Shown here piece by piece: positions 4,407-58,765 of a DNA stretch of 64,000 bases (position 1 is its first letter; the number at the start of each line of letters is the position of its first letter). This stretch comes from Candidatus Gastranaerophilales bacterium HUM_1 (GTDB taxonomy: Bacteria; Cyanobacteriota; Vampirovibrionia; Gastranaerophilales; Gastranaerophilaceae): positions 27,746-91,745 of the forward strand of contig DAAY01000004.1 in the NCBI GenBank assembly GCA_002103105.1, in the 5' to 3' direction. Under the pieces are notes generated by a model. That model ran no database searches and was not told where the DNA came from. It worked only from the letters and a program-made list of their open reading frames with translations. A program made the position numbers and the translations under genes.

Positions 4407-4466
4407 ACCTAACGAGTTTTGTGGGAGATACTTATCTGTATGACGATTGCGAGAATATAAACAAAT

Positions 4467-4549
4467 GTCGAAGTGGTGGAATTGGCAGACACGCACGATT
4501 CAGGTTCGTGTAGCGAAAGCTATTGAGGGTTCGAGTCCCTTCTTCGACA
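4467..4549 (+). tRNA. tRNA-Leu (anticodon CAG), class II with long variable arm, no encoded CCA
   Basis: Manual cloverleaf: acceptor GTCGAAG/CTTCGAC, D stem GTG/CAC, anticodon stem CACGA/TCGTG with loop TTCAGGT, variable arm TAGC-GAAA-GCTA, T arm GAGGG-TTCGAGT-CCCTT, discriminator A. Confidence 0.85.
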
Positions 4550-9776: not shown

Positions 9777-9809
9777 CCCTCTCCCTTAATCCCTCTCCAT
9801 CGGAGAGGG
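9777..9809 (+). repeat. solo REP-like element CCCTCTCCC-TTAAT-CCCTCTCC-ATC-GGAGAGGG
   Basis: 8-bp GC-rich stem with a 3-nt loop, preceded by a direct copy of the 5' arm. Near-identical elements occur at 48046-48077 and 56215-56248. Confidence 0.7.
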
Positions 9810-9824
9810 AAATTTCTTTTAAAC

Positions 9825-36097: not shown

Positions 36098-39000
36098 ATG
36101 GCTCAAGAATTAGAATTAATTGTTGATTTACTAAAGGAGATGAAGAGAGTTAATAGCACTAACATGGAGGGTTTTGACCGTTTGCTTGCAAATATTAGCA
36201 ACAGACTTGATTCTCTCGATGGGAACGTTGCTTCTGCCGAATTATTAAAAGCTTATTTGGGAGAATTAACAAAGAAAGTAGAAGAAAAATATTCTACAAC
36301 AATAACTAAATTTTCGGATATAGAACAAGCTTTGAGATCAATATTCTTAGACCAGCAAGAGCATGTCCGCAATAAAGACATGAAAGAATTGTTCGATATT
36401 TTTTCTAAGAACATGAATGGATTCTACACAGAAGCAAAACAACAAAAAGCCCTACTCTCTGGAATTGAATCTAGATTATCAGACTTGAGCAACAATAAAT
36501 CAGATAAAGAAGACATTCTTAGAACTATAACCCTACTTAGAAATGATTTTGAAAACCTTAACCATGCCTACAAAAATACAATTGACGAAGTTAATTCAAA
36601 CTTAAAAGGAATCTTAACAAATCTGATTAAGATGGATCAAACTGCAATTAATACAGAAATGAAGGAACAGCTAGATATCCTTTACAAAGCAACAAGCGAT
36701 ATTGTAAACGTTCTAAAAGCAATTGATGAAAAAGATGCACAAATTGAAAAGGTTTTGGCAAACGTTGCAACAAGCGAAAACTTAAAAATCGCTCAAGGAG
36801 TTTTAGACTCAATAATTGAAAAAACAATAGATATTTCATCATCTATTGGAAATCTTGCAGACAAAAAAGATATTGAGGGACTTCAAGCGGCTGCTGTTAT
36901 TATGAACAACAAACTTGATGAAACCTCAACAAAAGAAGATTTTTCAAAAATTAACCTTAAAACAGAATCCTTACTAACTCAAACAGAAGAAGTTAAACAA
37001 ACACTAGCAGACGTTACGAAAAATATTGAAAAACTTCCAAATACAACTCAACTTGAAGAAGCTTTGGCTGGAATTTTTCAAGATACAAAAAAACTTCAAG
37101 AAGATATAGAATCTGCAAATATAAAAAACGAAGTAAATAGCATTGAAGAAAAGGTAAACTCATTAACAGACGAACTAACCACTGTAAAAAACATTATTGA
37201 AGATATAAGTGAAATATTAACTTCAAAAATCCTTTCTTCAATTGAACAAATATCATTTGAAAATGAAGTATATGATATTAAAGAACATGTGTCAAACATG
37301 GTTGCTCAATTACCTCAAAAAGAAGACATTGAAAGAATTCTAGAAGAACATCATGCTCATAACAAAGCTCTTAACTCTATTTTAGAAAAAACTGATGTTA
37401 TCCAAGATAAGTTAGATAACCTTCCAACGCACCAAGATATGGAAATTCTTAACAACAATCAACTTGGACTTATTGAAAACCTTCAAGCCGTTGCGACAAA
37501 AGAAGATTTTGAAGCGTTATCTACGAAATCAGATAATCTTGAAGAAAAATTAGAGAACCTAAATTTTGATAACGAATTTGAAAACATTTACGATAAAACA
37601 TCTTCCATTGAAGAATGGCTAGAAAAGTCAAAAATCAAAGAAAAGACAGAGGAAATAACTGAAAAATTAGAAGCAAAATCAGAACAGAAAGATTTGCTAG
37701 AGCTTTTAAACTTGACTAAAAATATAATTAAAGAACTTGAAGAACTATCTGAAAACGCAGATGTAAAAAAAGTTAATAGAACTGTTGCAGATATTTACCA
37801 AATGATTGATGAATTAAAGACAGACTTGATGAACACTCAAGAAATGCACAATGATTCAATCATAGTACAACTTTCTGAATTGCAAAAAACAATTTCAAAT
37901 GTAGTAACAGCGGAAGAATTTTCAAAATTCATCGATGAACTCAAAGATTTTATTCAAAGAATTTTAAACCATACAGAAAAATTAGCATCTGATTTTGGAG
38001 ATGTTAAAAAATTGCAAGATGATATCATATTTAAACTTGATAATATTGATATTTCTAACATTGAAAACACAATTCAGAAAAATATTGAATCAGCATCTAG
38101 CAATTTGAAACAAACAATTGAAAAAAAACATGAAGATTTATCAGAAAAAGTTTCAAATATTGATACAAAACTGATTACTATTTCTGAATATCTAAACAAC
38201 GGAATTAAGCTAGACGATGCAACTTTAAAAACAACTATCAAAGAAATTCGTGAAATTCTTCAAAATAAAAAATCTAGTTTTGATAATATAGAAAAGGATA
38301 CAAATAGTGTTGTTGAGGACGTTCATAAATATGTTAACGAAATCAAAAATTTATTAGGTTCTTCAAATAAAGATATTTCAAACGACGTAAAGGAAAAATT
38401 AACAAACCTAGAAAATCTCATTGTTAGCTATAAAGCTTTCAATGAAAATCATTTTGAAAAAATTCTTGATAGACTTAGTGCTTATGAAAACCTTGCAGGA
38501 GCAACCAGTCTTCCTTCTAGTGAAATTGCTGGTTCAATTTCAGAATTGGGCGAAATTAAAGACCAAATTATTCAACTTGGAGAAACCTTTAATTCTTTGA
38601 CAAAAGTTGAAAATATTACAGACAAAGATATTTCCTCATTCATTTCAGATAAATTGAATGAACTTGGCGAAAATTTAAACGAATTATCTAACAATGTGGA
38701 AAATGGAATTCAACAAGGTTTTGCATATAATGCCGAGCTTATTGAAGAAAAAACAACAATTATTCTTGGATTTATCAAAGAACTTCGTCATGCCAGCACT
38801 GAAGATATTGATTTGTTTGAAAGATTAACTGTTACAGACAACAAATTAATGGATTTGCAACAGGAATTAGAACTAATTAATACTGACGTTATTAATGGAT
38901 TAACTTCTAAAACAACAACTTTAATTGAAGAACTAGCTCCAATTAAAGAATTGATTAGAGTCCTAAAACAAAATAACGATCAAATAACAAAACAAGAAGT

Positions 39001-41995
39001 GCATGAAAAACTTACCGATTTGCACGACTCAATCCATGAGGATTTAACCAACAATCCTAAAATTACAAGAACTTCTTATGAAAATTTTGAAAACACATAT
39101 GACAAAATTTCTGAAAGATTAACCTCAACAGAAAATAATTTGAGAGATTTTATCTTAGGAGATGTTGATTCTATAATAATTAAAATTGATTCTCTAAAAA
39201 CCGAATTAGAAGACCAACTAAATAGAATTGCTCCTCCAGATGCTGCTCATATGGCAGAATTCCACAAATTTATTGATGAAATAAATGTTTTCAAACAAGA
39301 ACAAAAAGATTTACTAGCAAATACAGCAGAAGACATCAAAACATCTCTTGCTGAAAAGATGGAAGACCAACACGACGAAATAAAATCTCTTTTGACTGTT
39401 GCCGTTAACAATGAAGAAATCATCAATGCAATTGAAGATTTAAAAAAATGTTTCAAATCACGAATTAAAGCACTTGCAGAAAATAAAGAAGAAGAAAAAT
39501 CTGATGAATTTGCAACAAATGAATTTGAGGAAGCTTTTGAAGAAAATACCAAAACCGCTCAAGTTATTGCTGATATTAAACAAGACTTCAACAGATTTTC
39601 GGATTTAATTAATGATTTGTCTGGAGAAAATCCAGAAATAGAGGACGTTCTAAATACTATTAAAAACAAAATCGACACAATTACTATTGTTAGACCCGAA
39701 AAAAATGACGATGAGAATTTAACAGATTTTGACATTATAAGAGATGAAAATGATGAAGAACCTCTAGAAGAAAATATTGAAACAATTATCGGAGAAAACA
39801 ATTTTGACTTCATCAAAGCATTTGACTTGTTAAAACAAGATATTACAAAACTTCGTACAGACGTAGAAAAAGCAATTCCTCAAGATGGGAATAAACCCGC
39901 AATTTCTTCTCTATCTTCAATTCCAAAACTTGGAAATGACAATCTATTAATTAATCTTAATAACAAAATTGATGATTTATCTAAAGAACTTAATAAAGAT
40001 TGGCTTGAAGAAATCAAGGGATACATTGCAGGTAGTGAAATTCAGTCAATGTTAGAAGATATTAGTGGAAAAATTGACATACTTACGCTAACAGATAATT
40101 CTGAATGGATTGAGGACATCAAAAATACCCTTCAAAATTTAAACACATCAGAGATTTCTGGAGAACCAAATAAAGAAATCCAAGAGATGCTTAAATTGAT
40201 AAGTCAAAAAATTGATATTTTGGCATCTTCAGACGATTACGAACTTATTGAAGATGTTAGAGATTCAATTGAAACCTCAGAAGAAATTAAAGAAACATTA
40301 AATCTTCTAGATAAAAAAGTAGATATTATTGCAACGTCAAATAACAACGAGGAAATTGAAGATATTCAAGATTCCTTAGAAAATATTGAATCTAAAATCG
40401 ATATTATTTCTCAAACTGACAACACTGAAAGTTTTGATGATATTCAAAACTCTTTAGAAAATATTGAATCTAAAATCGATATTATTTCTCAAACTGACAA
40501 CACTGAAAATTTTGATGATATTCAAAATTCTTTAGAGAATATTGAATCAAAAATTGATATAATTTCTCAATCTGAGGACAGTACAACTTTAGAAGAAATT
40601 GATAATTTGAAACATCAACTTACAAATTTAAGTGAAAAAGTTGATATTGTTGCTCAAACTGATTATTCAAACGATTTGGACGAAATCAGAGATTATATTT
40701 ATGGATTAGAAGACAAGCTTTCAGATATTTATACAAAAACAAAACCTATTGAAGAAAACGTTAGAAAACTATCAGCGTCAGATGCAAAATTAACATCAAT
40801 GCTTGAAACTCTTAATCACAAAATTGATGAGATATTTACAAATAACAATGCAAATTCTCAAAAAGAGTTTGAAGACATTAAGCATTTAATCTTCGCTCAA
40901 TCTGATTTTATCAAGAACTTTGAGAATAATAGCAAAACAGAAGCTTTCAAGAAATGTTTGAAAGAGTTAACTCTAGAAGTCAACAACTTAAACATAAATT
41001 CTCACACCGAAACAAAACAAGTTCAAAAATCATTGAAAGAAATGAAAGAATCAATCATGGCAGCAGTTGTAACCATTTTCAACCAAGTTTCTTTCATTGA
41101 AGAATCCGAAGATATTAAAGATTTTGTAGAAGAACGTACAGACGAAATCAATCAAAACTTGGAAGAAGTTACAAAACAATTGAAACAAATCACAAGTTCA
41201 ACTGATGAAACTGATTACAACTACTCTATGCAAGATATTGAATCTGATTTAGCGAAACTTAGATTGGCTCTTAATGAACTTCAAAATAATGAACTTGAAA
41301 ATCAATCAAGTGAACTTGCAAATATTGCAGATAATGTCTATAGAATCACTTCAACCGTTGAAGAACTTCAAAATTCAATGACTCAAGATGAAATAAAAGA
41401 TATTAAATCTGAAATTTTTACCTTGAGAGAACAAACTCAAAAGATTTTAGCTTCGTCTGATGAATCGTATAATGCAATCAATACTGGACTTGAAGGCTTT
41501 AGTAAAGTTATTACAAATCACTTAACTGATAAAGTCGATAAAGTTACTGAAATGTTAGAAAAATCCTCTGTATCTGATAAAGTTATGCGTCAAGCTCTTA
41601 TCTATATGGGAGAATGGATTGATTCAGCAAGCGAAAGTATTGATAAAATTTCATCAAATGCTGAAGAAATTGTTGATGTTAAAAATACAATTGAGAAATT
41701 GAAAAAAGAAATCCCAGAACAAACAGATATTTTAAATTCAATAGAAGAAAAGTTTGATGAACAACAAGAAAGATTAAGTTACTTTGAAAAACAAATATCT
41801 AAACTTGGAAATCTTGAAGAAAAATTTGAACAACAAGAAGAAAGAATTGATAGATTAGAAATGACAATTGAAAAAATCCTTTCTGCGGTCGAAGATATTG
41901 ATGATTCAAAAGTAAACAAGAAAATCGATAAACTAGACAAACAATTAGCAAAACTAAGTATTAATATAGAGAAACTAACAGCATATGTTGACTGA
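36098..41995 (+). CDS. giant acidic coiled-coil protein, 1965 aa
   Basis: Single uninterrupted ORF. Glu/Lys/Asn/Ile/Leu/Asp-rich with very few Gly/Pro/aromatics, no signal peptide or TM segment, heptad-like periodicity throughout, internal tandem repeats. Confidence 0.7.
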   Translation: MAQELELIVDLLKEMKRVNSTNMEGFDRLLANISNRLDSLDGNVASAELLKAYLGELTKKVEEKYSTTITKFSDIEQALRSIFLDQQEHVRNKDMKELFDIFSKNMNGFYTEAKQQKALLSGIESRLSDLSNNKSDKEDILRTITLLRNDFENLNHAYKNTIDEVNSNLKGILTNLIKMDQTAINTEMKEQLDILYKATSDIVNVLKAIDEKDAQIEKVLANVATSENLKIAQGVLDSIIEKTIDISSSIGNLADKKDIEGLQAAAVIMNNKLDETSTKEDFSKINLKTESLLTQTEEVKQTLADVTKNIEKLPNTTQLEEALAGIFQDTKKLQEDIESANIKNEVNSIEEKVNSLTDELTTVKNIIEDISEILTSKILSSIEQISFENEVYDIKEHVSNMVAQLPQKEDIERILEEHHAHNKALNSILEKTDVIQDKLDNLPTHQDMEILNNNQLGLIENLQAVATKEDFEALSTKSDNLEEKLENLNFDNEFENIYDKTSSIEEWLEKSKIKEKTEEITEKLEAKSEQKDLLELLNLTKNIIKELEELSENADVKKVNRTVADIYQMIDELKTDLMNTQEMHNDSIIVQLSELQKTISNVVTAEEFSKFIDELKDFIQRILNHTEKLASDFGDVKKLQDDIIFKLDNIDISNIENTIQKNIESASSNLKQTIEKKHEDLSEKVSNIDTKLITISEYLNNGIKLDDATLKTTIKEIREILQNKKSSFDNIEKDTNSVVEDVHKYVNEIKNLLGSSNKDISNDVKEKLTNLENLIVSYKAFNENHFEKILDRLSAYENLAGATSLPSSEIAGSISELGEIKDQIIQLGETFNSLTKVENITDKDISSFISDKLNELGENLNELSNNVENGIQQGFAYNAELIEEKTTIILGFIKELRHASTEDIDLFERLTVTDNKLMDLQQELELINTDVINGLTSKTTTLIEELAPIKELIRVLKQNNDQITKQEVHEKLTDLHDSIHEDLTNNPKITRTSYENFENTYDKISERLTSTENNLRDFILGDVDSIIIKIDSLKTELEDQLNRIAPPDAAHMAEFHKFIDEINVFKQEQKDLLANTAEDIKTSLAEKMEDQHDEIKSLLTVAVNNEEIINAIEDLKKCFKSRIKALAENKEEEKSDEFATNEFEEAFEENTKTAQVIADIKQDFNRFSDLINDLSGENPEIEDVLNTIKNKIDTITIVRPEKNDDENLTDFDIIRDENDEEPLEENIETIIGENNFDFIKAFDLLKQDITKLRTDVEKAIPQDGNKPAISSLSSIPKLGNDNLLINLNNKIDDLSKELNKDWLEEIKGYIAGSEIQSMLEDISGKIDILTLTDNSEWIEDIKNTLQNLNTSEISGEPNKEIQEMLKLISQKIDILASSDDYELIEDVRDSIETSEEIKETLNLLDKKVDIIATSNNNEEIEDIQDSLENIESKIDIISQTDNTESFDDIQNSLENIESKIDIISQTDNTENFDDIQNSLENIESKIDIISQSEDSTTLEEIDNLKHQLTNLSEKVDIVAQTDYSNDLDEIRDYIYGLEDKLSDIYTKTKPIEENVRKLSASDAKLTSMLETLNHKIDEIFTNNNANSQKEFEDIKHLIFAQSDFIKNFENNSKTEAFKKCLKELTLEVNNLNINSHTETKQVQKSLKEMKESIMAAVVTIFNQVSFIEESEDIKDFVEERTDEINQNLEEVTKQLKQITSSTDETDYNYSMQDIESDLAKLRLALNELQNNELENQSSELANIADNVYRITSTVEELQNSMTQDEIKDIKSEIFTLREQTQKILASSDESYNAINTGLEGFSKVITNHLTDKVDKVTEMLEKSSVSDKVMRQALIYMGEWIDSASESIDKISSNAEEIVDVKNTIEKLKKEIPEQTDILNSIEEKFDEQQERLSYFEKQISKLGNLEEKFEQQEERIDRLEMTIEKILSAVEDIDDSKVNKKIDKLDKQLAKLSINIEKLTAYVD
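40361..40580 (+). repeat. in-frame 78-bp tandem repeat (about 2.8 copies) inside the giant gene
   Basis: Units start at 40361, 40439 and 40517, encoding DIQ(D/N)SLENIESKIDIISQTDNTE(S/N)FD. Flanked by more diverged repeats of the same 25-26-aa pattern (..IEDI...L..I..KIDI....D...). Confidence 0.85.
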
Positions 41996-43674: not shown

Positions 43675-44367
43675 ATGAAGAAAATTAGAGCATTCACACT
43701 TGCAGAAGTACTAATTACCATTGGAATAATAGGAGTTGTCGCAGCAATGACAATTCCAAATCTTCTAACAAAAATGGATAGAGATAAAAAAATTGCAACA
43801 GTTCGAAAAGCTCAATCAATTCTAAGCCAAGCAATAAAACTATCGACAATTGACAATGAAGATTATGAAGCTTGGGATACAAGCCTACCTCCAAGGGAAT
43901 ATTTGGACAAATATTACACCCCATACATGAAAGTTATTGCATATTGCGACACATATGCAAAGTGCAACTATAAAAGTGCGGATCCATGGTCCAGATACAA
44001 TGGAAGTAATTCATATATTGGATTTAACGCATATAGCAGAATTCCAATATTTACTCTCGATGGAATTTTATATTCAATTTCCCAAACAGGAGGAAGCAAT
44101 GATCAAGATGACAATGGAATTTATGATTTTAACTATATTGGCTCAAATGGTGTTTTTATCGATGTAAACGGACCTAAGAAACCTAACAGATTTGGAAATG
44201 ATGTTTTCATGCTAGTAAGAAACCAAGATGGCTCTGTTATGCCTTTAGGCTATAACCTTCCTGATAGCAAAATTAATCAAGATTGCTCCAAACAAGGAAA
44301 ATGCTTATATTGTGCAGAAAAATTAAGAAGAAATGGATGGAAATCAACTAACAATTATCCTTGGTAA
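43675..44367 (+). CDS. prepilin-type N-terminal cleavage/methylation domain protein (pilin/pseudopilin-like)
   Basis: MKKIRA|FTLAEVLITIGIIGVVAAMTIPNLL with Glu at +5. The C-terminal region has four Cys. Confidence 0.75.
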   Translation: MKKIRAFTLAEVLITIGIIGVVAAMTIPNLLTKMDRDKKIATVRKAQSILSQAIKLSTIDNEDYEAWDTSLPPREYLDKYYTPYMKVIAYCDTYAKCNYKSADPWSRYNGSNSYIGFNAYSRIPIFTLDGILYSISQTGGSNDQDDNGIYDFNYIGSNGVFIDVNGPKKPNRFGNDVFMLVRNQDGSVMPLGYNLPDSKINQDCSKQGKCLYCAEKLRRNGWKSTNNYPW

Positions 44368-48045: not shown

Positions 48046-48077
48046 CCCCTCTCCCTAACCCTCTCCCTCGGAGAGGG
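48046..48077 (+). repeat. solo REP-like element CCCCTCTCCC-TAA-CCCTCTCC-CTC-GGAGAGGG
   Basis: Same architecture as 9777-9809 and 56215-56248. Confidence 0.7.
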
Positions 48078-48310
48078 AAATAAATTCAACACTTACTTAA
48101 CAAAAACGAAGTATATCTAGCTTAATGCGTACTATTTAAACATCCAATTACCAAAGAATAAAACAGAATTTTAAAAATTATTACAAGTTTTAAAATACTT
48201 TTGAATGAAAAATACCATACTTTAGTATGAATTTTTTAAATTTAGACTAAAGTTATTAAAATTTATGCCGTAAATATAAATAAGAAGGCATGTATCAAAA
48301 AGGAAAAATT

Positions 48311-52854: not shown

Positions 52855-55149
52855 ATGTTTAAATTTTTATTTGCGAAGAAAGAGCAGCACTCTGCAATTA
52901 CAGAAGCTGAACTAAACAAAGTTTATTCAGAATTAAAAAAGGCATATCCAGCCGATAATATTCCAGAAATCAGGAAGAAATATTTGTCAATGCATATTCA
53001 AAAATATGGATACTTAACATATTCCTTCCAAAAAGCTCTTGATGAATTAACAAATGAAGAAACATTATTTGCACTAGAAGAAAAGTGGAAGCAAAATAAC
53101 ACATTCAAAAATGGAGAATTTACATTCAAACCTAATCAAATCAGCCCTCTTGCAAGAAACCACGAAAAAAATTCTGATTGGTTCAAAAAAGAAGGTCATG
53201 ACATCAAATTGATTAACCTTGCCGCACTTGGCAATGGAAACAAATCAGAGGAAACTGGAAAATTTTTCGACTGGTTGAAACAACTTCTAATTCTCCCAAC
53301 AGGGTGTATTGAAAATAAAATTTATAACACAACAATCTACCTAATCCCATTCCACCCAAGAGAATTCGGATGTGCTTATCTTCCAAAAAGTAGCGAAGTA
53401 AGCGAAAAATTAAAAGATAAACATGTTGAAGAATTAACTGGGATGAATGCTAAACAACAATTGCAAACATTTATATATCTTGCACAATTAGCAGGACACC
53501 CAGTAATTTACGATATCCTTCCTCAAACAGGAAGATTTTCAAAATTTGTACTAGCAAACCCACAAGTTGCACGCTGGTACGACATTACCGAATTACAAAA
53601 ACAATTAATGAATAAAATCAATGAAGTGGCAGAATTTTTGTCAAAAGACCACGACTCAGACGATATTCAAATTGTTAAAGATATTTATATACAAAGACTT
53701 CAAGGAAATTCTGGTGACTTAAGTCCCGCATTCCAAGAATTGTACAACAGTTTCGACGGAATTATGATTGAACACAAAAAAACTTTCTCAAACGCAATGC
53801 TTGAAAGAAGTTATCAATTGAAAATTCAAAAAAGAGTTAAAGAACTTGTTGCCAAAATTCACGGATTTAAAAACGATAAAAAACAACTTGAAGAAAAAGA
53901 CATTATAAAACAACTCGATACAATTCAAGCATTGATGACAGAAGGATTATGGCCAGCACCAGGCGGAGCGTGGTGTTCAGCTGGCGTTCCAATTTATGAC
54001 GGAATGAGCGAATGTGGAGGATACCCAACCTTCAAACACTACGATTTCAAAGGTGATGATGTTACTGCTCTAGCAAACCTTGACTGTCAAACCCCATATT
54101 ACTTCGTAAATCTTGAAAATGGAAAATTCAACGAAGATGTTATTGAACTATTTATCAATAGCATGAAACAACTACAACAAGATTATAACTTTGATGGATT
54201 TAGAGTTGACCACATCGACCACATTGTGGATGAAGTTTCTGAACAAAATGGAAGACCAATAAGTTACAGAGCTCCTCGATACGTTTTGAATAAATTAAAT
54301 ACTGCAATGAAAAAGAAATTCCCTTATTTTGCAACACTTGCAGAATACATGTTATGGGATAACTTCTATAAAGAATACCACCAAGACATGAAATTTGATG
54401 TATTGTGGGGAAATGATATTATTTCACAATTTGATAAAACTCCAGAAAGAATATCAGAAGATAACCAAAACTTATCAAACTACAATACAAAATTCAAAAA
54501 AGGTAACATGTTATCTATTTTAAAAACATATAATAACCAAGATGGAGAATTTCATTGTATAGACCAGTACCCAGCACAATTGGGAGAACAGGGAGCGTTG
54601 TACAAATGGGCAAAATATAAACTTCTTCCAGGGGGTAAATTTGCACAAAGACCAATGATGTACGTAGATGGCGACGAAAGTTTTACTCAAGGTGGAATTG
54701 AATACACTATTGGCGAAGAAGTTGCGATGAAACGAGCTAATAACGAAGACTTCTATACAAAATTTGATGCAATTGATAGATTTGTAAAAAGTAATAATGT
54801 TATTACTGGTGGAGAAGCTCAAATTATTGTAGATGATGAAGACGGTTATAGTGCTTGGTTAATAACAAGAGAGCCGTTAAGAAAAGCTTTTTTGGTTGTA
54901 TCAAACCATAAATACCCAACAGAAAAAGTGACAAAAACAGCCGCAACAGGAGAATCATATAAAGAAATTGTTGAAGGTTATACAATTTTTGATAAAGAAA
55001 TTCCAATCCCTGGAGATTACACGTTAAAATATGAATATTCACTAAACGAAAAAAACTATGAAGCAAGAGAAATCGAGCATACAGATAGACTTCATTTTGA
55101 AAAAATCGAACCAAGTGAATTTAGGATATTTGAACTTGAACGAGGCTAG
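52855..55149 (+). CDS. alpha-amylase-family (GH13-like) protein, specificity unknown
   Basis: FDGFRVDHIDHIVDE resembles GH13 conserved region II (GFRxDxxxH with the nucleophile Asp). The rest was not assignable by eye. Confidence 0.45.
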   Translation: MFKFLFAKKEQHSAITEAELNKVYSELKKAYPADNIPEIRKKYLSMHIQKYGYLTYSFQKALDELTNEETLFALEEKWKQNNTFKNGEFTFKPNQISPLARNHEKNSDWFKKEGHDIKLINLAALGNGNKSEETGKFFDWLKQLLILPTGCIENKIYNTTIYLIPFHPREFGCAYLPKSSEVSEKLKDKHVEELTGMNAKQQLQTFIYLAQLAGHPVIYDILPQTGRFSKFVLANPQVARWYDITELQKQLMNKINEVAEFLSKDHDSDDIQIVKDIYIQRLQGNSGDLSPAFQELYNSFDGIMIEHKKTFSNAMLERSYQLKIQKRVKELVAKIHGFKNDKKQLEEKDIIKQLDTIQALMTEGLWPAPGGAWCSAGVPIYDGMSECGGYPTFKHYDFKGDDVTALANLDCQTPYYFVNLENGKFNEDVIELFINSMKQLQQDYNFDGFRVDHIDHIVDEVSEQNGRPISYRAPRYVLNKLNTAMKKKFPYFATLAEYMLWDNFYKEYHQDMKFDVLWGNDIISQFDKTPERISEDNQNLSNYNTKFKKGNMLSILKTYNNQDGEFHCIDQYPAQLGEQGALYKWAKYKLLPGGKFAQRPMMYVDGDESFTQGGIEYTIGEEVAMKRANNEDFYTKFDAIDRFVKSNNVITGGEAQIIVDDEDGYSAWLITREPLRKAFLVVSNHKYPTEKVTKTAATGESYKEIVEGYTIFDKEIPIPGDYTLKYEYSLNEKNYEAREIEHTDRLHFEKIEPSEFRIFELERG

Positions 55150-55177: not shown

Positions 55178-55725
55178 CCTCTCCTTGAGGAGATAGCTAT
55201 CTTTTCCTTCTCTCTTTGGGAAGAAAGAGTGGAATTTCATCATTGTTCATTCCTCCCCGAGGGGGAGGCTAGGAGAGGGGTTGAACAGAACAAGGAACAC
55301 ATTGAAGAATTAAATACTCAATGGACCACCTCACCCTTCCCTCTCCTCAAGGAGAGGGATATTTGTTCCTTCTCTCTTTGAAAGAAAGAGTGGAATTTCA
55401 TCATTGTTCATTCCTCTCCGTGGGAGAGAACTATTTATTCCTTCTCCCTTGGGAGAAGGTTAGGATGAGGGGTTATTAAACAGAACAAGGAACACATTGA
55501 AGAATCAAATACTCAATGGACCACCTCACCCTTCCCTCTCCTCAAGGAGAGGGCTATTTGTTTCTTCACCCGAGAAAAAGTATCAACCCAAAATACAAAT
55601 ACGTTATTCTGAGCAAAGCGAAAAACCCCAAGCCTAACGTGCTCAACAAAACCCTTCATTCAAACCGTCCGCCTTAGGATAATTATTTCCCCCTCTCCTT
55701 GAGGAGAGGGGTAGGGGTGAGGTGG
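55178..55725. repeat. mosaic hairpin-module array R1 (REP/BIME-like)
   Basis: Two units of about 160-195 bp, then a 205-bp segment bounded by inverted module-A copies (55521-55553 and 55691-55725). Modules are A (CCACCTCACCC..CCCTCTCC-TCAA-GGAGAGGG), B, C and D as defined in the findings. Confidence 0.85.
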
Positions 55726-55750
55726 AAGCTCTTACGCATTTTACACTAAC

Positions 55751-55795
55751 CTACTTATCCCAAAAAACTTCTTGCAACTGCAAATAAACACCCAT
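55751..55795 (-). pseudogene. 3'-terminal fragment of a DUF559 endonuclease gene
   Basis: The minus strand reads MGVYLQLQEVFWDK-TAG, compared with GVYLHLQEVFGDK-TAG at the end of the intact gene (57997-58341). The same 25-bp spacer and inverted module A lie downstream, and homology ends at about 55795. Confidence 0.6.
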
Positions 55796-56134
55796 CAAAA
55801 TCACCCAAAAGAATTAAATATATTAACAAAAATTAAGCAAAATAAAGAAAAACCAAAATTTATTTACAAATAGTTACAATCCCTTAAACACTCGTCACAC
55901 AATACATTCAGCCTTATCAAAACGAACAATCTAATCCAAAAGAATTAATTTTTTAAAATTAATGTTATCTCACTAGTAAATTTGGGTTTAATAAAATTGT
56001 AAAGCGATGAGGATTACTTACATTTTGAGAATTCGAGAAGTTATAAATACTGAATAGGATATTAAAAGTTTGGGATACAATTCAAAATACTGAAGAGTAT
56101 CCCGTTGCGGTTTTCAAATGTCGTTTGGGACATA

Positions 56135-56440
56135 AAAGCAACCCCTCTAAAAATCCAAGCAAACACGTCATTCTGAACAAAGCAAAGCATCTCAAGCTTA
56201 GGTCCAGAGGCCAACCCCTCTCCCTAGCCCTCTCCCCATCGGAGAGGGAACAAGAGGTAAAGCTAATCAAACCTCAATCTCTCACTGAACTCAGAAAAAC
56301 AATTCCTTCTCCTTGGGGACACCAGCTGAACCGACGAAACGAAGTGAGTCGAGTGAAACTGCGTACCGTATGGCTGAAGGTTAAGATGAGGGGATAACCC
56401 AAACACAACTCCTCTCCGAGGGAGAGGTTGGGAGAGGGGA
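56135..56440. repeat. mosaic hairpin-module array R2 (more diverged)
   Basis: Contains a diverged D unit (CACGTCATTCTGAACAAAGCAAAGCATCTCAAGCTTAGG), the 33-nt element at 56215-56248, GAAGGTTAAGATGAGGGG, and a B-like CTCCTCTCCGAGGGAGAGGTTGGGAGAGGGG at 56409-56439. Confidence 0.65.
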
Positions 56441-56516
56441 CAACAGGACAACAACAAACAAAACCCACAACAAACGGCAAGAAACCCCGATATTTCAAGC
56501 AAAATCATCCAAACGG

Positions 56517-56545
56517 TTGACAGACTTTAAAAAAAATAGTAATAT
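56517..56545 (+). promoter_or_regulatory. sigma70-type promoter of the pilin gene
   Basis: TTGACA (56517-56522), 17-nt spacer, TAATAT (56540-56545), about 55 nt upstream of ATG 56603. Confidence 0.45.
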
Positions 56546-56602
56546 AATCGTTATGTAAAGCGTATGTTATAGTTTTATTTTAAAAAGAAAGGCGAAAAGA
56601 TT

Positions 56603-57379
56603 ATGACAAAAAGATTCGGTTTTACTTTGGCAGAAGTTTTGATCACATTAGGTATCATTGGTGTAGTTGCTGCCATGACTATCCCAACATTGATTGCTAA
56701 TACTAACTCAGCAAAATTTAGATCACAATTTAAGAAAACATTATCAACATTGAACCAAGCAGGTTTGATGGCTCAAGCACAATACGATTTTGACTATGCT
56801 GGTGCTGATACAGCTTGTAAAGAAGCAACAGGTGGTACTGAAAACCCAGAAGATATGATGTCATTCTGTTCATTATTGAACGGTACATTGACTGGTCACA
56901 CTTATGTTGGTAAACCATCAAAACTAAAAAGAGCTAACTCTGGAGCTACTAGTGCTGACAAAGCAACAACTTACTCTATCAACAAGGCTACGACTGGTTT
57001 CACATATACTTTAGCTGCTGGTTCTCATGATGAAATGATTGCTTACCAATTAGCAGATGGTTCAATCGTCGCATTCCCAGCAACAGCTACTGGTTGTACT
57101 CTTGAATTAGGTAAACAAGTTACAGCTAAAACATTAGGAGAGACTCCATTGAATGGATGTATTGGTTTCATCGACGTAAACGGTACAACATTACCTAACA
57201 AAGAAGTTACTTGTGGTACTGCTGCAACTTCTGGTATAGCATCAACAAAAGTTGAAACACCTTGTACTGTTAAAAACGATGCTAAACACATGACAGACGT
57301 ATTCCCAGTAGTATTCCACGATGCAACAGTAGAACCAGCATCAGATGCTGCTAAATATGTATTAACATCAGCTAAATAG
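56603..57379 (+). CDS. prepilin-type N-terminal cleavage/methylation domain protein, candidate major type IV pilin
   Basis: MTKRFG|FTLAEVLITLGIIGVVAAMTIPTLI (Gly -1, Phe +1, Glu +5). Cys pairs in the C-terminal half. Codon choice (GGT, GCT, ACT, GTT) and the strong promoter and terminator suggest high expression. Confidence 0.8.
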   Translation: MTKRFGFTLAEVLITLGIIGVVAAMTIPTLIANTNSAKFRSQFKKTLSTLNQAGLMAQAQYDFDYAGADTACKEATGGTENPEDMMSFCSLLNGTLTGHTYVGKPSKLKRANSGATSADKATTYSINKATTGFTYTLAAGSHDEMIAYQLADGSIVAFPATATGCTLELGKQVTAKTLGETPLNGCIGFIDVNGTTLPNKEVTCGTAATSGIASTKVETPCTVKNDAKHMTDVFPVVFHDATVEPASDAAKYVLTSAK

Positions 57380-57418
57380 TTAGTTTGATATAAAAACTTT
57401 TTAATTTAAAAGCTTTTG

Positions 57419-57449
57419 ATAGTGGAGATGTAATCTCCACTATTTTTTT
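57419..57449 (+). terminator. intrinsic terminator of the pilin gene
   Basis: ATAGTGGAGAT-gta-ATCTCCACTAT followed by T6. Confidence 0.75.
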
Positions 57450-57494
57450 GTAATTATGAGCTTTAATGTTTTTTTTAGAACTTGTTCAACATCA

Positions 57495-57971
57495 TTCCTC
57501 CCCTAGGGGGAGGCTAGGAGAGGGGTTGATTTTATAAATATACTCATCTCAAATTTTTATCATTCCAAACAAATCCAACTTGTTTTATATTTAATTTTAT
57601 TCTACTCATGACCTCTATTCAGAATAACCCTCTCCCTCCCCCTCTCCCTTGGAGAGGGGTTGAACAGAACAAGAAATATGTTGAAGAATTAAATACTCAA
57701 TGGTCCACCTCACCCTTCCCTCTCCTCAAGGAGAGGGATATTGCTTCTTCTCCCTTTGAAAGATGTCATTTCATCATTGTTCCTTCCTCTCCGAGGGAGA
57801 GGGGATATTTGTTTATTCACCTGAAAAAGAAGTATCAACCCAAAATGCAAATACGTTATTCTGAGCGAAGCAAAAAAAACCAAGCCTAACGTGCTCAACA
57901 AAACCCTCCATTCGAACCTTCAGCCTTGAGATTTTCCCTCTCCTTGAGGAGAGGGGGTAGGGGTGAGGTGG
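57495..57971. repeat. mosaic hairpin-module array R3, forming the 3' flank of the DUF559 gene
   Basis: Module B at 57495-57529, CCCCTCTCC-ctt-GGAGAGGGG near 57640, C-A at 57662-57737, an extra hairpin module of about 65 bp, a D unit at about 57819-57930, and inverted A at 57936-57971. Confidence 0.85.
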
Positions 57972-57996
57972 AATCTCTTACGCATTTTACATTAAC

Positions 57997-58341
57997 CTAC
58001 TTATCCCCAAACACTTCTTGCAAATGCAAATATACACCCTCAAAATTATTATCTATTTCATTATTCCAAAACCTTATAACCCTAAATCCTTTTGATTGTA
58101 AATATTTTGTTCTTTCATTATCTAATTCTATCTCTTCTGGTTCGTTATGCTGGCCTCCATCAATCTCTATGATTACTTTGTATTCTAGACACACAAAATC
58201 AACAATATAATCTCCAATATTATATTGCCTTTTAAATTTTAACCCTTGAAAGTTTCTATTTCTCAATAAAGACCAGAGTTTTAACTCTTGTTTTGTTTGG
58301 TTTTGGCGTAATTTTTGAATAAGGAACTTATATTTATTCAT
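57997..58341 (-). CDS. DUF559 endonuclease-domain protein (Vsr / PD-(D/E)xK-like fold)
   Basis: QELKLWSLLRNRNFQGLKFKRQYNIGDYIVDFVCLEYKVIIEIDGGQHNEPEEIELDNERTKYLQSKGFRVIRFWNNEI is the DUF559 pattern. Start set to ATG 58341 (the track start 58347 is a TTG). TAG stop at 57997-57999. Confidence 0.8.
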   Translation of the reverse strand: MNKYKFLIQKLRQNQTKQELKLWSLLRNRNFQGLKFKRQYNIGDYIVDFVCLEYKVIIEIDGGQHNEPEEIELDNERTKYLQSKGFRVIRFWNNEIDNNFEGVYLHLQEVFGDK

Positions 58342-58388
58342 AGCCAAATTTTAACATAAAGAAACTTAAATTCTTTGCGTTTAATTAT

Positions 58389-58765
58389 CCACCTCACCTA
58401 ACCTCTCCTCAAGGAGAGGGATATTGCGTATTCTCTCTTTGGAAAGTGCCATCTCTTCTTTGTACCTTATTCTCCTTTGGGAAAGAACTATTTATACCTT
58501 CTCCCGAGGGAGAAGGTTAGGATGAGGGGTTGAATAGAACAAGGAGTACGTTGAAGAATTAAATACCCAATGGTACACCTCACCCTTCCCTCTCCTCAAG
58601 GAGAGGGATATTGCGTATTCTCTCTTTGGAAAGTGTCATCTCTCCTTTGTACCTTGTTCTCCTTTTGGAAAGTGTCATCTCTCCTTTGTACCTTGTTCTC
58701 CTTTTGGAAAGAACTATTTATACCTTCTCCCGAGGGAGAGGTTAGGTGAGGGATATTTATTTCTT
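58389..58765. repeat. mosaic hairpin-module array R4, forming the 5' flank of the DUF559 gene
   Basis: Module A at 58389-58420 and 58576-58607, module C at 58532-58573, CTTCTCCCGAGGGAGAAGGTTAGGATGAGGGG at about 58498, and a 39-bp tandem duplication GGAAAGTGTCATCTCTCCTTTGTACCTTGTTCTCCTTTT at about 58628-58705. Confidence 0.85.

Follow-up and report, generated by a model that had tools for sequence, protein, structure and literature searches.

We analysed a stretch of 64,000 nucleotides (64 kb, hereafter the window) from Candidatus Gastranaerophilales bacterium HUM_1 (contig DAAY01000004.1, positions 27,746 to 91,745), in which the interval 55178-58765 carries GC-rich repeat arrays against a window G+C content of about 32% and, among these arrays, a small gene of the DUF559 family. 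An earlier note, made from the sequence alone, had described here four arrays of GC-rich hairpins assembled from four modules (A to D), and both the arrays and the modules, the orientations of module A included, were found as described. The module A hairpin, CCCTCTCC-N4-GGAGAGGG, occurs exactly at 55339, 55534, 55691, 57718, 57936 and 58588, and a seventh copy with one mismatch lies at 58401, shuffled sequences giving 0. Two copies of module B, at 55247-55284 and 57492-57529, share 97% identity and a third one, at 56406, is degenerate, the four copies of module C are 85-98% identical, and the two closest copies of module D share 88% identity, the diverged third one still aligning with a score of 59 against a shuffle maximum of 40. 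The 39-bp tandem duplication was likewise recovered (Table 1). The DUF559 gene call was confirmed (Pfam PF04480, E = 3e-39; profile score 133.7 bits against a curated cut-off of 20.6), as was the lack of a gene for a tyrosine transposase associated with repetitive extragenic palindromes (RAYT and REP, respectively): 0 of the 20 mid-size open reading frames (ORFs) of the window match the Y1 transposase profile (PF01797).

The repeat motif and the DUF559 cassette

Modules A and B and the short hairpins belong to one motif class, that is, a hairpin followed by a mirror purine tail. Read on its own strand, each unit consists of a pyrimidine arm, a loop of 2-5 nt, a complementary purine arm, a linker of 1-3 nt and a third block, again of purines, which is the mirror image of the purine arm except that T may stand in place of A; the hairpins comprise 7-10 pyrimidine/purine base pairs, with perfect stems of 8-10 bp. 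BoxC repeats were reportedly described by Bachellier in the 1990s and PIT elements by Hoyne and Maher in 2000 and 2002. Over time one and the same repeat has been called BoxC of E. coli, PIT element (Hoyne & Maher) and triplex motif (TM, or TMECO; Holder et al. 2015, PMC4666352), and it has also been treated as a G-quadruplex/hairpin motif under the names "HPG1/HPG2" (bioRxiv 10.1101/032615). On its own strand module A reads CCCTCTCC-TTGA-GGAGAGGG-GTA-GGGGTGAGG, and the published TMECO consensus is CCCTCTCCC-loop-GGGAGAGGG-TTA-GGGTGAGGG (PMC4666352). The GC-rich hairpin arrays of the window are copies of this BoxC/PIT/TM(ECO) intrastrand-triplex repeat, with which they share the motif in a nearly identical sequence, CCCTCTCC(C)-loop-(G)GGAGAGGG-3 nt-GGGTGAGG, the intergenic position, the occurrence in both orientations, the frequent tail-to-tail inverted pairs of two subtypes (in E. 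coli there are five tail-to-tail pairs, each joining two subtypes; PMC4666352) and the instability between relatives. The differences concern the host, here a Melainabacteria-like genome with 32% G+C, the packing of 15 copies into 3.6 kb, the spacers of the pairs (48-51 nt here, 16-27 nt in E. coli) and the DUF559 gene lying inside one pair; the BoxC/PIT/TM(ECO) literature reports no associated gene and never mentions DUF559. The units of the window fall within the limits for this repeat family, namely arms of 6-15 nt and a third block 1-6 nt behind the purine arm. Triplex formation by TMECO has been seen by circular dichroism and nuclear magnetic resonance (PMC4666352); for the window repeats, which were folded with a tool that models hairpins only, it is presumed from the sequence likeness.

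A scanner written for the hairpin and mirror-tail design found 17 TM copies in the window, against 0-1 in each of 20 composition-preserving shuffles. Fifteen of them fall within 55252-58752 and two are solitary copies elsewhere in the window, the motif being not confined to this one locus. The mirror relationship was also examined without presupposing it, on 391 perfect 8-bp pyrimidine/purine hairpins whose arm is not symmetric, collected in the window and in 80 loci carrying DUF559 homologues (50-67% identical, from a scan of one genome per species): a perfect mirror block stands just 3' of the hairpin in 150 of the 391 and a perfect direct repeat in 37, while a mirror block 5' of the hairpin was found in none (0/391). 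Since the mirror tail holds over 19 arm variants, stem and third block covary. Several sequences occur in the linker (TTA, CTA, GTA, T), and no conserved GTAG or CGTC tag is present in the listed variants.

The earlier note had regarded the arrays as a REP-like family. The part of this proposal that concerns structure stands, the organization resembling that of bacterial interspersed mosaic elements (BIMEs) and REPINs; the membership of the repeats in the BoxC/PIT/TM family (PMC4666352) had not been recognised. As an analogy of architecture only, the arrays and the REP/BIME-RAYT/REPIN systems have in common short palindromic repeats that form inverted doublets and mosaic clusters, one small enzyme gene between inverted copies of the repeat, and a large excess of repeats over genes. 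They differ in that the window repeats lack the GTAG/CGTC tag and possess the extra mirror purine segment, and in that the gene between the repeats encodes a Vsr/PD-(D/E)XK-like nuclease instead of an HUH Y1 transposase; therefore, single-strand cut-and-paste chemistry is not expected. No Rfam family reached its threshold on the arrays or on 10 related loci, the only sub-threshold match being whalefall-1 (RF01762), for which module A scores 18-25 bits (best 25, gathering threshold 37; e.g. 55327-55360, 57706-57739 and 58576-58609). The whalefall-1 consensus consists of a CUCUCC/GGAGAG hairpin and, after about 24 nt, AGGGUGAGG, and this metagenomic RNA motif may be a relative of the TM DNA repeat with an insertion in the linker.

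Most TM units of the window form inverted pairs whose tails face each other. In three pairs (55252-55358, 55439-55553 and 58496-58607) the 48-51 nt between the tails are module C, and folding such TM-C-TM units as single-stranded DNA gives two hairpins with a tail:tail stem between them (z = -3.7 and -4.0). The DUF559 gene occupies the position of module C between inverted TMs, with both tails facing the gene, 27 nt separating its stop codon from the TM on the plus strand (57935-57969) and 45 nt its start codon from the TM on the minus strand (58392-58420). The gene (0.35 kb), its own short flanks and the two inverted TMs make up a cassette of about 0.5 kb. Two tail-outward doublets, A-D-A', are found at 55523-55723 and 57707-57969, and in array 1 there is left the 3' end of a second DUF559 gene. 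Over 86 nt this remnant is 93% identical to the end of the intact gene, and its last 13 codons (55754-55792) read GVYLQLQEVFWDK. A full second DUF559 pseudogene in array 1 was considered and rejected, these last 13 codons only having survived. A small hairpin, CCCGTAAGGG / CCCTTRCGGG, lies just inside the TM tails of several homologue loci (L020:5700-5990, L008:5700-5990 and L041:5940-5990), and in L020 the loop of such a palindrome holds a complete 150-nt tail-outward TM doublet, which gives nested palindromes; the related CTCTTACGC is present in the window at 57976-57984 and 55731-55739.

As for the surrounding genes, the pilin named in the earlier note is a pilin-like (prepilin-type) gene carrying the N_methyl motif, and the NfnA-like product is a flavoprotein with DHODB_Fe-S_bind, NAD and FAD domains. 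The GH13-like label did not survive for the 764-aa protein encoded at 52855-55149, for which Pfam and NCBIfam gave no match at E <= 0.01; this gene keeps 88% nucleotide identity in the locus of a sister species (L082). The window encodes a second prepilin-type (N_methyl) protein at 43675-44367, with an ORF of 1965 aa upstream of it (36098-41995).

Table 1. TM repeats, modules and DUF559 sequences, with their positions in the window.
Feature	Position	Strand	Remarks
TM repeat, module B type, CCTCCCC-GAG-GGGGAGG-CTA-GGAGAGG	55252..55278	+	mirror-tail scanner
Module C, spacer of gene-less inverted TM pair	55283..55325	+	
TM repeat, module A	55328..55358	-	mirror-tail scanner
TM repeat, variant CCTTCTCCC-TT-GGGAGAAGG-TTA-GGATGAGGG	55439..55471	+	mirror-tail scanner
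Module C spacer	55478..55520	+	
TM repeat, module A	55523..55553	-	mirror-tail scanner
Module D, interior of tail-outward TM doublet (A-D-A')	55564..55689	+	
TM repeat, module A inverted	55690..55723	+	mirror-tail scanner
DUF559 gene 3'-end remnant beside its TM	55726..55801	-	93% identical to 57954-58039
Diverged module D copy	56135..56215	+	63% identity
TM repeat, additional to the earlier note's list	56217..56249	-	mirror-tail scanner
TM repeat, degenerate module B	56410..56437	+	mirror-tail scanner
TM repeat, module B	57497..57523	+	mirror-tail scanner
TM repeat, additional to the earlier note's list	57629..57659	-	mirror-tail scanner
Module C spacer	57662..57704	+	
TM repeat, module A	57707..57737	-	mirror-tail scanner
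Module D	57819..57934	+	
TM repeat, inverted-repeat arm downstream of DUF559 gene	57935..57969	+	tail towards gene
DUF559 / Vsr-fold nuclease gene, 116 aa	57997..58347	-	homologues start at ATG 58341
TM repeat, inverted-repeat arm upstream of DUF559 gene	58392..58420	-	tail towards gene
TM repeat	58496..58528	+	mirror-tail scanner
Module C spacer	58532..58575	+	
TM repeat, module A	58577..58607	-	mirror-tail scanner
39-bp tandem duplication	58618..58711	+	2.4 copies, 96% identity
TM repeat	58724..58752	+	mirror-tail scanner
Solitary intergenic TM repeat, no DUF559 nearby	9778..9811	-	mirror-tail scanner
Solitary intergenic TM repeat, no DUF559 nearby	48048..48078	-	mirror-tail scanner

DUF559 genes between inverted TM repeats in many phyla

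The earlier note had suggested that the association with DUF559 might be widespread. The 80 homologue loci belong mostly to Melainabacteria/Gastranaerophilales, the others, by record title, to Patescibacteria, Alpha-, Gamma- and Zetaproteobacteria, Thermodesulfobacteriota, Bacillota, Bacteroidota and Chloroflexota, and within 100 bp of the gene, to its left and right, GC-rich hairpins are enriched about 40-fold. TM density is 6.8 and 7.8 per kb in these two flanks, falls to 0.071 per kb at distances above 1.5 kb and is zero within the gene itself, which corresponds to an enrichment of about 100-fold over the flanks beyond 1.5 kb and of about 15-fold over non-ORF flank DNA (the non-ORF far flanks hold 0.50 TM per kb, with a TM in 12 of 207 far intergenic segments). 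A TM lies within 300 bp of the gene in 63 of the 80 loci, and on both sides of it in 49; the tails face the gene more often than they point away from it, both upstream (46 versus 25) and downstream (61 versus 29). Around many of the genes the TM forms part of inverted repeats 30-150 nt long, and an identical hairpin core, its non-palindromic loop included, is found left and right of the gene in 11 of 47 loci, against 5 of 2162 cross-locus comparisons. Paralogues within one genome carry different TM variants. TMs whose stems are lineage-specific also adjoin the genes of distant homologues (38-50% identity) in Deinococcus, Neisseria gonorrhoeae, Azospirillum, Pseudanabaena, Sphingomonas and Synechocystis, and all the more distant taxa considered (7/7, ycjD of E. 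coli included) show the DUF559-TM arrangement. Two ways of refuting the association that the earlier note had named, confinement of the motif to this locus and a lack of enrichment beside DUF559 genes, are contradicted by the data. DUF559 genes thus sit between inverted TM copies in many phyla. Of the proposal that DUF559 is the associated or cognate enzyme of the repeats, the physical association is borne out; that the enzyme is also the cognate one is what we infer. The PSP...GEG extensions mentioned in the earlier note are real as well, homologue ORFs carrying translated repeats at their N or C end (MGEGLGVRA..., ...PNPLPSERE).

This distribution bears on the idea that the repeats are ordinary REP/BIME-like regulatory elements, such as terminators, mRNA stabilisers or insulators, and DUF559 a passenger in a repeat-rich hotspot. 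The arrays do lie between convergent or tandem genes, like BIMEs, and the TM hairpins are stable (dG -6 to -8 kcal/mol). However, we found no intrinsic terminator at the repeats and no T-run after the hairpins, the functional studies of Maher, as far as they are cited in PMC4666352, found no promoter or terminator activity, and an enrichment of 15- to 100-fold together with the inverted arrangement in 80 + 7 loci of several phyla cannot be hitch-hiking; this idea, already disfavoured, appears very improbable.

Several loci show particular arrangements of gene and repeats. In two metagenome-assembled genomes (MAGs), of a Methylococcaceae (L057:5600-6700) and of a Thermodesulfobacteriota (L077:3300-4300), the cassette with its two TMs lies inside what looks like an ORF for a PglX/Eco57I-like N6-adenine methyltransferase, whose N-terminal part is upstream and whose DPCCGSGHF motif is downstream on the same strand (translation by eye). 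On a plasmid of Synechocystis sp. B12 (CP101712.1, L194:2313-4837) DUF559 and its flanking TMs stand between a DUF1156 fragment and a hypothetical protein, perhaps a further case of insertion into a gene of the methyltransferase type. A longer TM derivative flanks some of the DUF559 genes of Gastranaerophilales (L089:3870-3950 and 4415-4495; L097:26-106; L003, L058) and has an extra hairpin of the TCGCAG...CTGCG type between the GGGAGG arm and the GGGTGGGTA tail, the two copies in L089 being in direct, not inverted, orientation. Three tandem units of 281 bp, each with a TM-type repeat pair, follow DUF559 in N. gonorrhoeae (L190:3480-4181), and the longest flanking inverted repeat observed, 151 nt, nearly perfect and ending in CCCCCAGGGAGAGGG, surrounds the DUF559 gene of a Gammaproteobacteria MAG (L080:5800-6450). 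Most clusters of DUF559 homologues are known only from contigs shorter than 3 kb, as expected if flanking repeats break metagenome assemblies.

Another possibility is that the flanking inverted repeats are recombination sites for the programmed inversion of the DUF559 segment, as in a phase-variable switch. Among predicted inversion targets DUF559 proteins are over-represented with an odds ratio of 14.3 and "endonuclease domain-containing" proteins with one of 9.6 (PMC9881135), an enrichment that we attribute to the flanking inverted repeats; the insertion in PglX-like ORFs may explain why DUF559 and PglX were both flagged in that screen. Only 45 nt separate the upstream repeat from the start codon in the window, the sole promoter-like match in this space overlaps the TM repeat, the 45-nt stretch would be carried along with the gene, and no invertase gene lies nearby, which leaves such a switch with hardly any probability.

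The arrangement also recalls miniature inverted-repeat transposable elements and small insertion sequences, in which terminal inverted repeats (30-150 nt here) surround a short segment and gene-less derivatives and nested insertions occur. In contrast to these, no transposase of the DDE or any other kind is present, and no target-site duplication was seen outside the terminal inverted repeats, at the outer ends of the 13 loci inspected by eye. Plasmids and phages were rejected as the vehicle, homologues occurring in 61 of 72,556 plasmid records (several of them really chromosomes) and in 4 of 50,697 phage records.

Concerning the protein itself, a profile of 27 homologues matches the Neisseria DUF559 protein of PDB entry 3HRL at E = 2e-30 and the catalytic domain of I-Bth0305I (3R3P) at E = 3e-4 over 72 residues. 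Residues D50, E61, D63, H67 and D76 are invariant across the 27 homologues and, by analogy with Vsr and I-Bth0305I, are probably catalytic. I-Bth0305I is a homodimer that cuts within a pseudopalindrome and has an ancestry in common with Vsr (PMC3239194, PMC3384342). With the EDxHD and free-standing homing endonucleases DUF559 shares the homologous nuclease core and the behaviour of a selfish gene, and the logic of a homodimer on a pseudopalindrome fits an inverted TM pair; it differs from them in that the gene is intergenic, with no intron or intein residence, in that the N-terminal DNA-binding domains are absent, and in that the target would be a dispersed repeat and not one particular site within a conserved gene. 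With the Vsr endonuclease it has in common the fold and the conserved acidic/histidine residues, but it scores below the Vsr family cut-offs, lacks a dcm partner and occurs in another genomic context. Weak matches to homing-endonuclease families were found in PADLOC and PHROGs, and membership in a defence system was rejected, PADLOC giving no meaningful match.

Joint absence and turnover of gene and repeats

Comparison of related genomes indicates that the DUF559 gene and its repeats appear and disappear together. Among the Gastranaerophilales relatives with BioY the operon that ends in this gene is conserved; in one lineage DUF559 and TMs come after it, and in three other lineages other genes, with no DUF559 and no TM. 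Similarly, 32 loci syntenic for NfnA (68-90% identity) and devoid of DUF559 hold one TM in total. Since the neighbouring genes of these NfnA and BioY relatives differ too, this is co-absence and not an empty target. In one BioY lineage (L199-L201:3178-4057) a Gp49/HTH (helix-turn-helix) toxin-antitoxin-like pair is present in L199 and L201 and absent in L200, which carries an inverted GGTGCAT...ATGCACC repeat at that site; downstream of BioY there is a general hotspot of insertion.

Close relatives differ in their arrays, and the breakpoints fall at the repeats. In the sister species, locus L082 keeps the synteny and has 8 TMs against the 15 of the window and about 420 bp less, and the differences between the two are bounded by TMs. 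In another case an identical DUF559 protein is found in two genomic contexts, and the 657 bp of shared DNA end right after a TM-derived module.

E. coli K-12 offers a comparable situation. Its YcjD protein is 49% identical to the DUF559 protein of the window, TMECO#9 lies about 170 bp downstream of ycjD, a degenerate TM hairpin overlaps the ycjD stop codon, and a 38-nt duplicate of the 3' end of ycjD stands between the gene and TMECO#9 (hairpin and duplicate in L081:2323-2360 and 2396-2425); a TM accompanied by a 3' gene fragment is the pattern seen also at 55690-55801 in the window. The ycjD block is present in 3375 of 5426 complete E. coli genomes. In the other genomes no more than the first 123 nt of the intergenic region remain and eefRABCD takes the place of the block, a location of these genes that has been described (bioRxiv 10.1101/2024.08.01.606150), and in one eefRABCD strain no TM was found in the 20 kb around the site. 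Therefore, TMECO#9 and ycjD belong to a single indel block, which in E. coli alternates with eefRABCD and not with an empty site. From one E. coli strain to another TM loci are rearranged to an unusual degree, and a mobility gene or function was never found near the repeats (Holder et al., PMC4666352).

These data can be read differently if DUF559 is a free-standing homing endonuclease gene for which TM pairs are a neutral, repeated landing site, the TMs themselves being spread by other means (an unknown transposase, replication slippage, or a host function such as nucleoid or transcript structure). TMs are indeed far more numerous than DUF559 genes and persist in their absence, the position of the gene is exactly that of the short spacer in gene-less pairs, and the fold is related to that of a homing endonuclease. 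However, TMs are rare in these genomes away from DUF559 (0.07 per kb overall, and the single TM of the 32 NfnA-syntenic loci), each paralogue has its private TM variant on both sides, and no other candidate enzyme was found among the 20 mid-size ORFs of the window or, according to Holder et al., near the E. coli TMs; we regard this explanation as unlikely.

Alternatively, DUF559 might be a host maintenance nuclease that processes TM hairpins or triplexes, e.g. at stalled forks, and that adjoins TMs for regulatory or cis reasons without being selfish. Vsr, whose fold it resembles, is a repair enzyme, TMs adopt stable triplexes in vitro and also block polymerases (PMC4666352), and the cassette is stably syntenic between two species. 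The occurrence of several divergent paralogues per genome, each between its own inverted pair, of cassettes inside methyltransferase ORFs, of a patchy distribution among close relatives and of 3' gene fragments makes such a housekeeping role decidedly improbable.

A candidate partner enzyme for the BoxC/PIT/TM repeats

The explanation that we favour, and that on balance seems somewhat probable to us, is that the TM arrays cluster with a DUF559 cassette whose nuclease recognises the repeats, and that gene and repeats spread by homing-like recombination. According to this model, DUF559, a nuclease with the Vsr/EDxHD fold, would recognise the TM repeat or the pseudopalindrome formed by an inverted pair and would nick or cut there. 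Repair by recombination with other copies might then place copies of the whole gene or of parts of it in other pairs, in the manner of homing. The same repair would duplicate and shuffle the segments between repeats, giving rise to mosaic arrays, and would leave behind solitary repeats and 3' gene fragments; the same recombination might also generate the instability reported at TM loci (PMC4666352). The association, the architecture and the identity of the repeat are established by the data; the cutting of TM repeats by DUF559 and the homing-like spread are proposals.

A number of observations weigh against this explanation. Of the 23 E. coli TMs, 22 are not beside a DUF559 gene, and the same is true of two in the window; E. 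coli strains devoid of ycjD keep TMs elsewhere, every genome having matches, at a median of 4 places. Under the scanner used, 17 of the 80 homologue loci have no TM within 300 bp. Paralogues of the same MAG are old (72-83% nucleotide identity), and recent intragenomic copies are not supported. Among the NfnA and BioY relatives there is no clean pair of occupied and empty alleles with the same flanks, and the cassette of the window has kept its synteny in a species with a DUF559 of 86% identity and therefore has not moved recently. Module C has no obvious similarity, by inspection only, to the interior of the cassette, and the gene-less pairs are therefore not simple deletion derivatives. The protein has only about 115 aa, i.e. 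no more than the nuclease core, the additional DNA-binding domains of I-Bth0305I being absent. Furthermore, the binding or cutting of the TM motif by DUF559 is a prediction for every member of the family.

In a broader and more tentative form, to which we would give slightly less than an even chance, the DUF559 proteins, YcjD included, might be the missing partner enzymes of the BoxC/PIT/TM repeats, and the gene with its inverted repeats a minimal selfish cassette of about 0.5 kb present in many phyla, in which a nuclease of the Vsr fold recognises a hairpin/triplex-forming repeat and spreads by recombination. DUF559 is the first candidate for such a partner of the BoxC/PIT/TM repeat. The repeat family and the protein family were each already known, and the link between them appears to be new: no paper connecting DUF559 or YcjD with BoxC/PIT/TM was found in the searchable literature, subscription-only works lying outside it.

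The BoxC/PIT/TM repeats have been known since the 1990s and are still unexplained, and the very large DUF559 family, represented in E. coli K-12 by ycjD, has no known function. Their physical link gives each of them a testable function, which can be addressed directly in E. coli. It accounts for a common annotation artefact, the PSP...GEG-type extensions of DUF559 ORFs, and the TM flanks may account for the fragmentation of metagenome assemblies at DUF559 genes. If DUF559 is indeed the partner enzyme, this would account for the origin of the repeats and for the genome instability observed at them, and would represent, besides REP-RAYT, a second example of a repeat family with a dedicated enzyme, based on a different chemistry.

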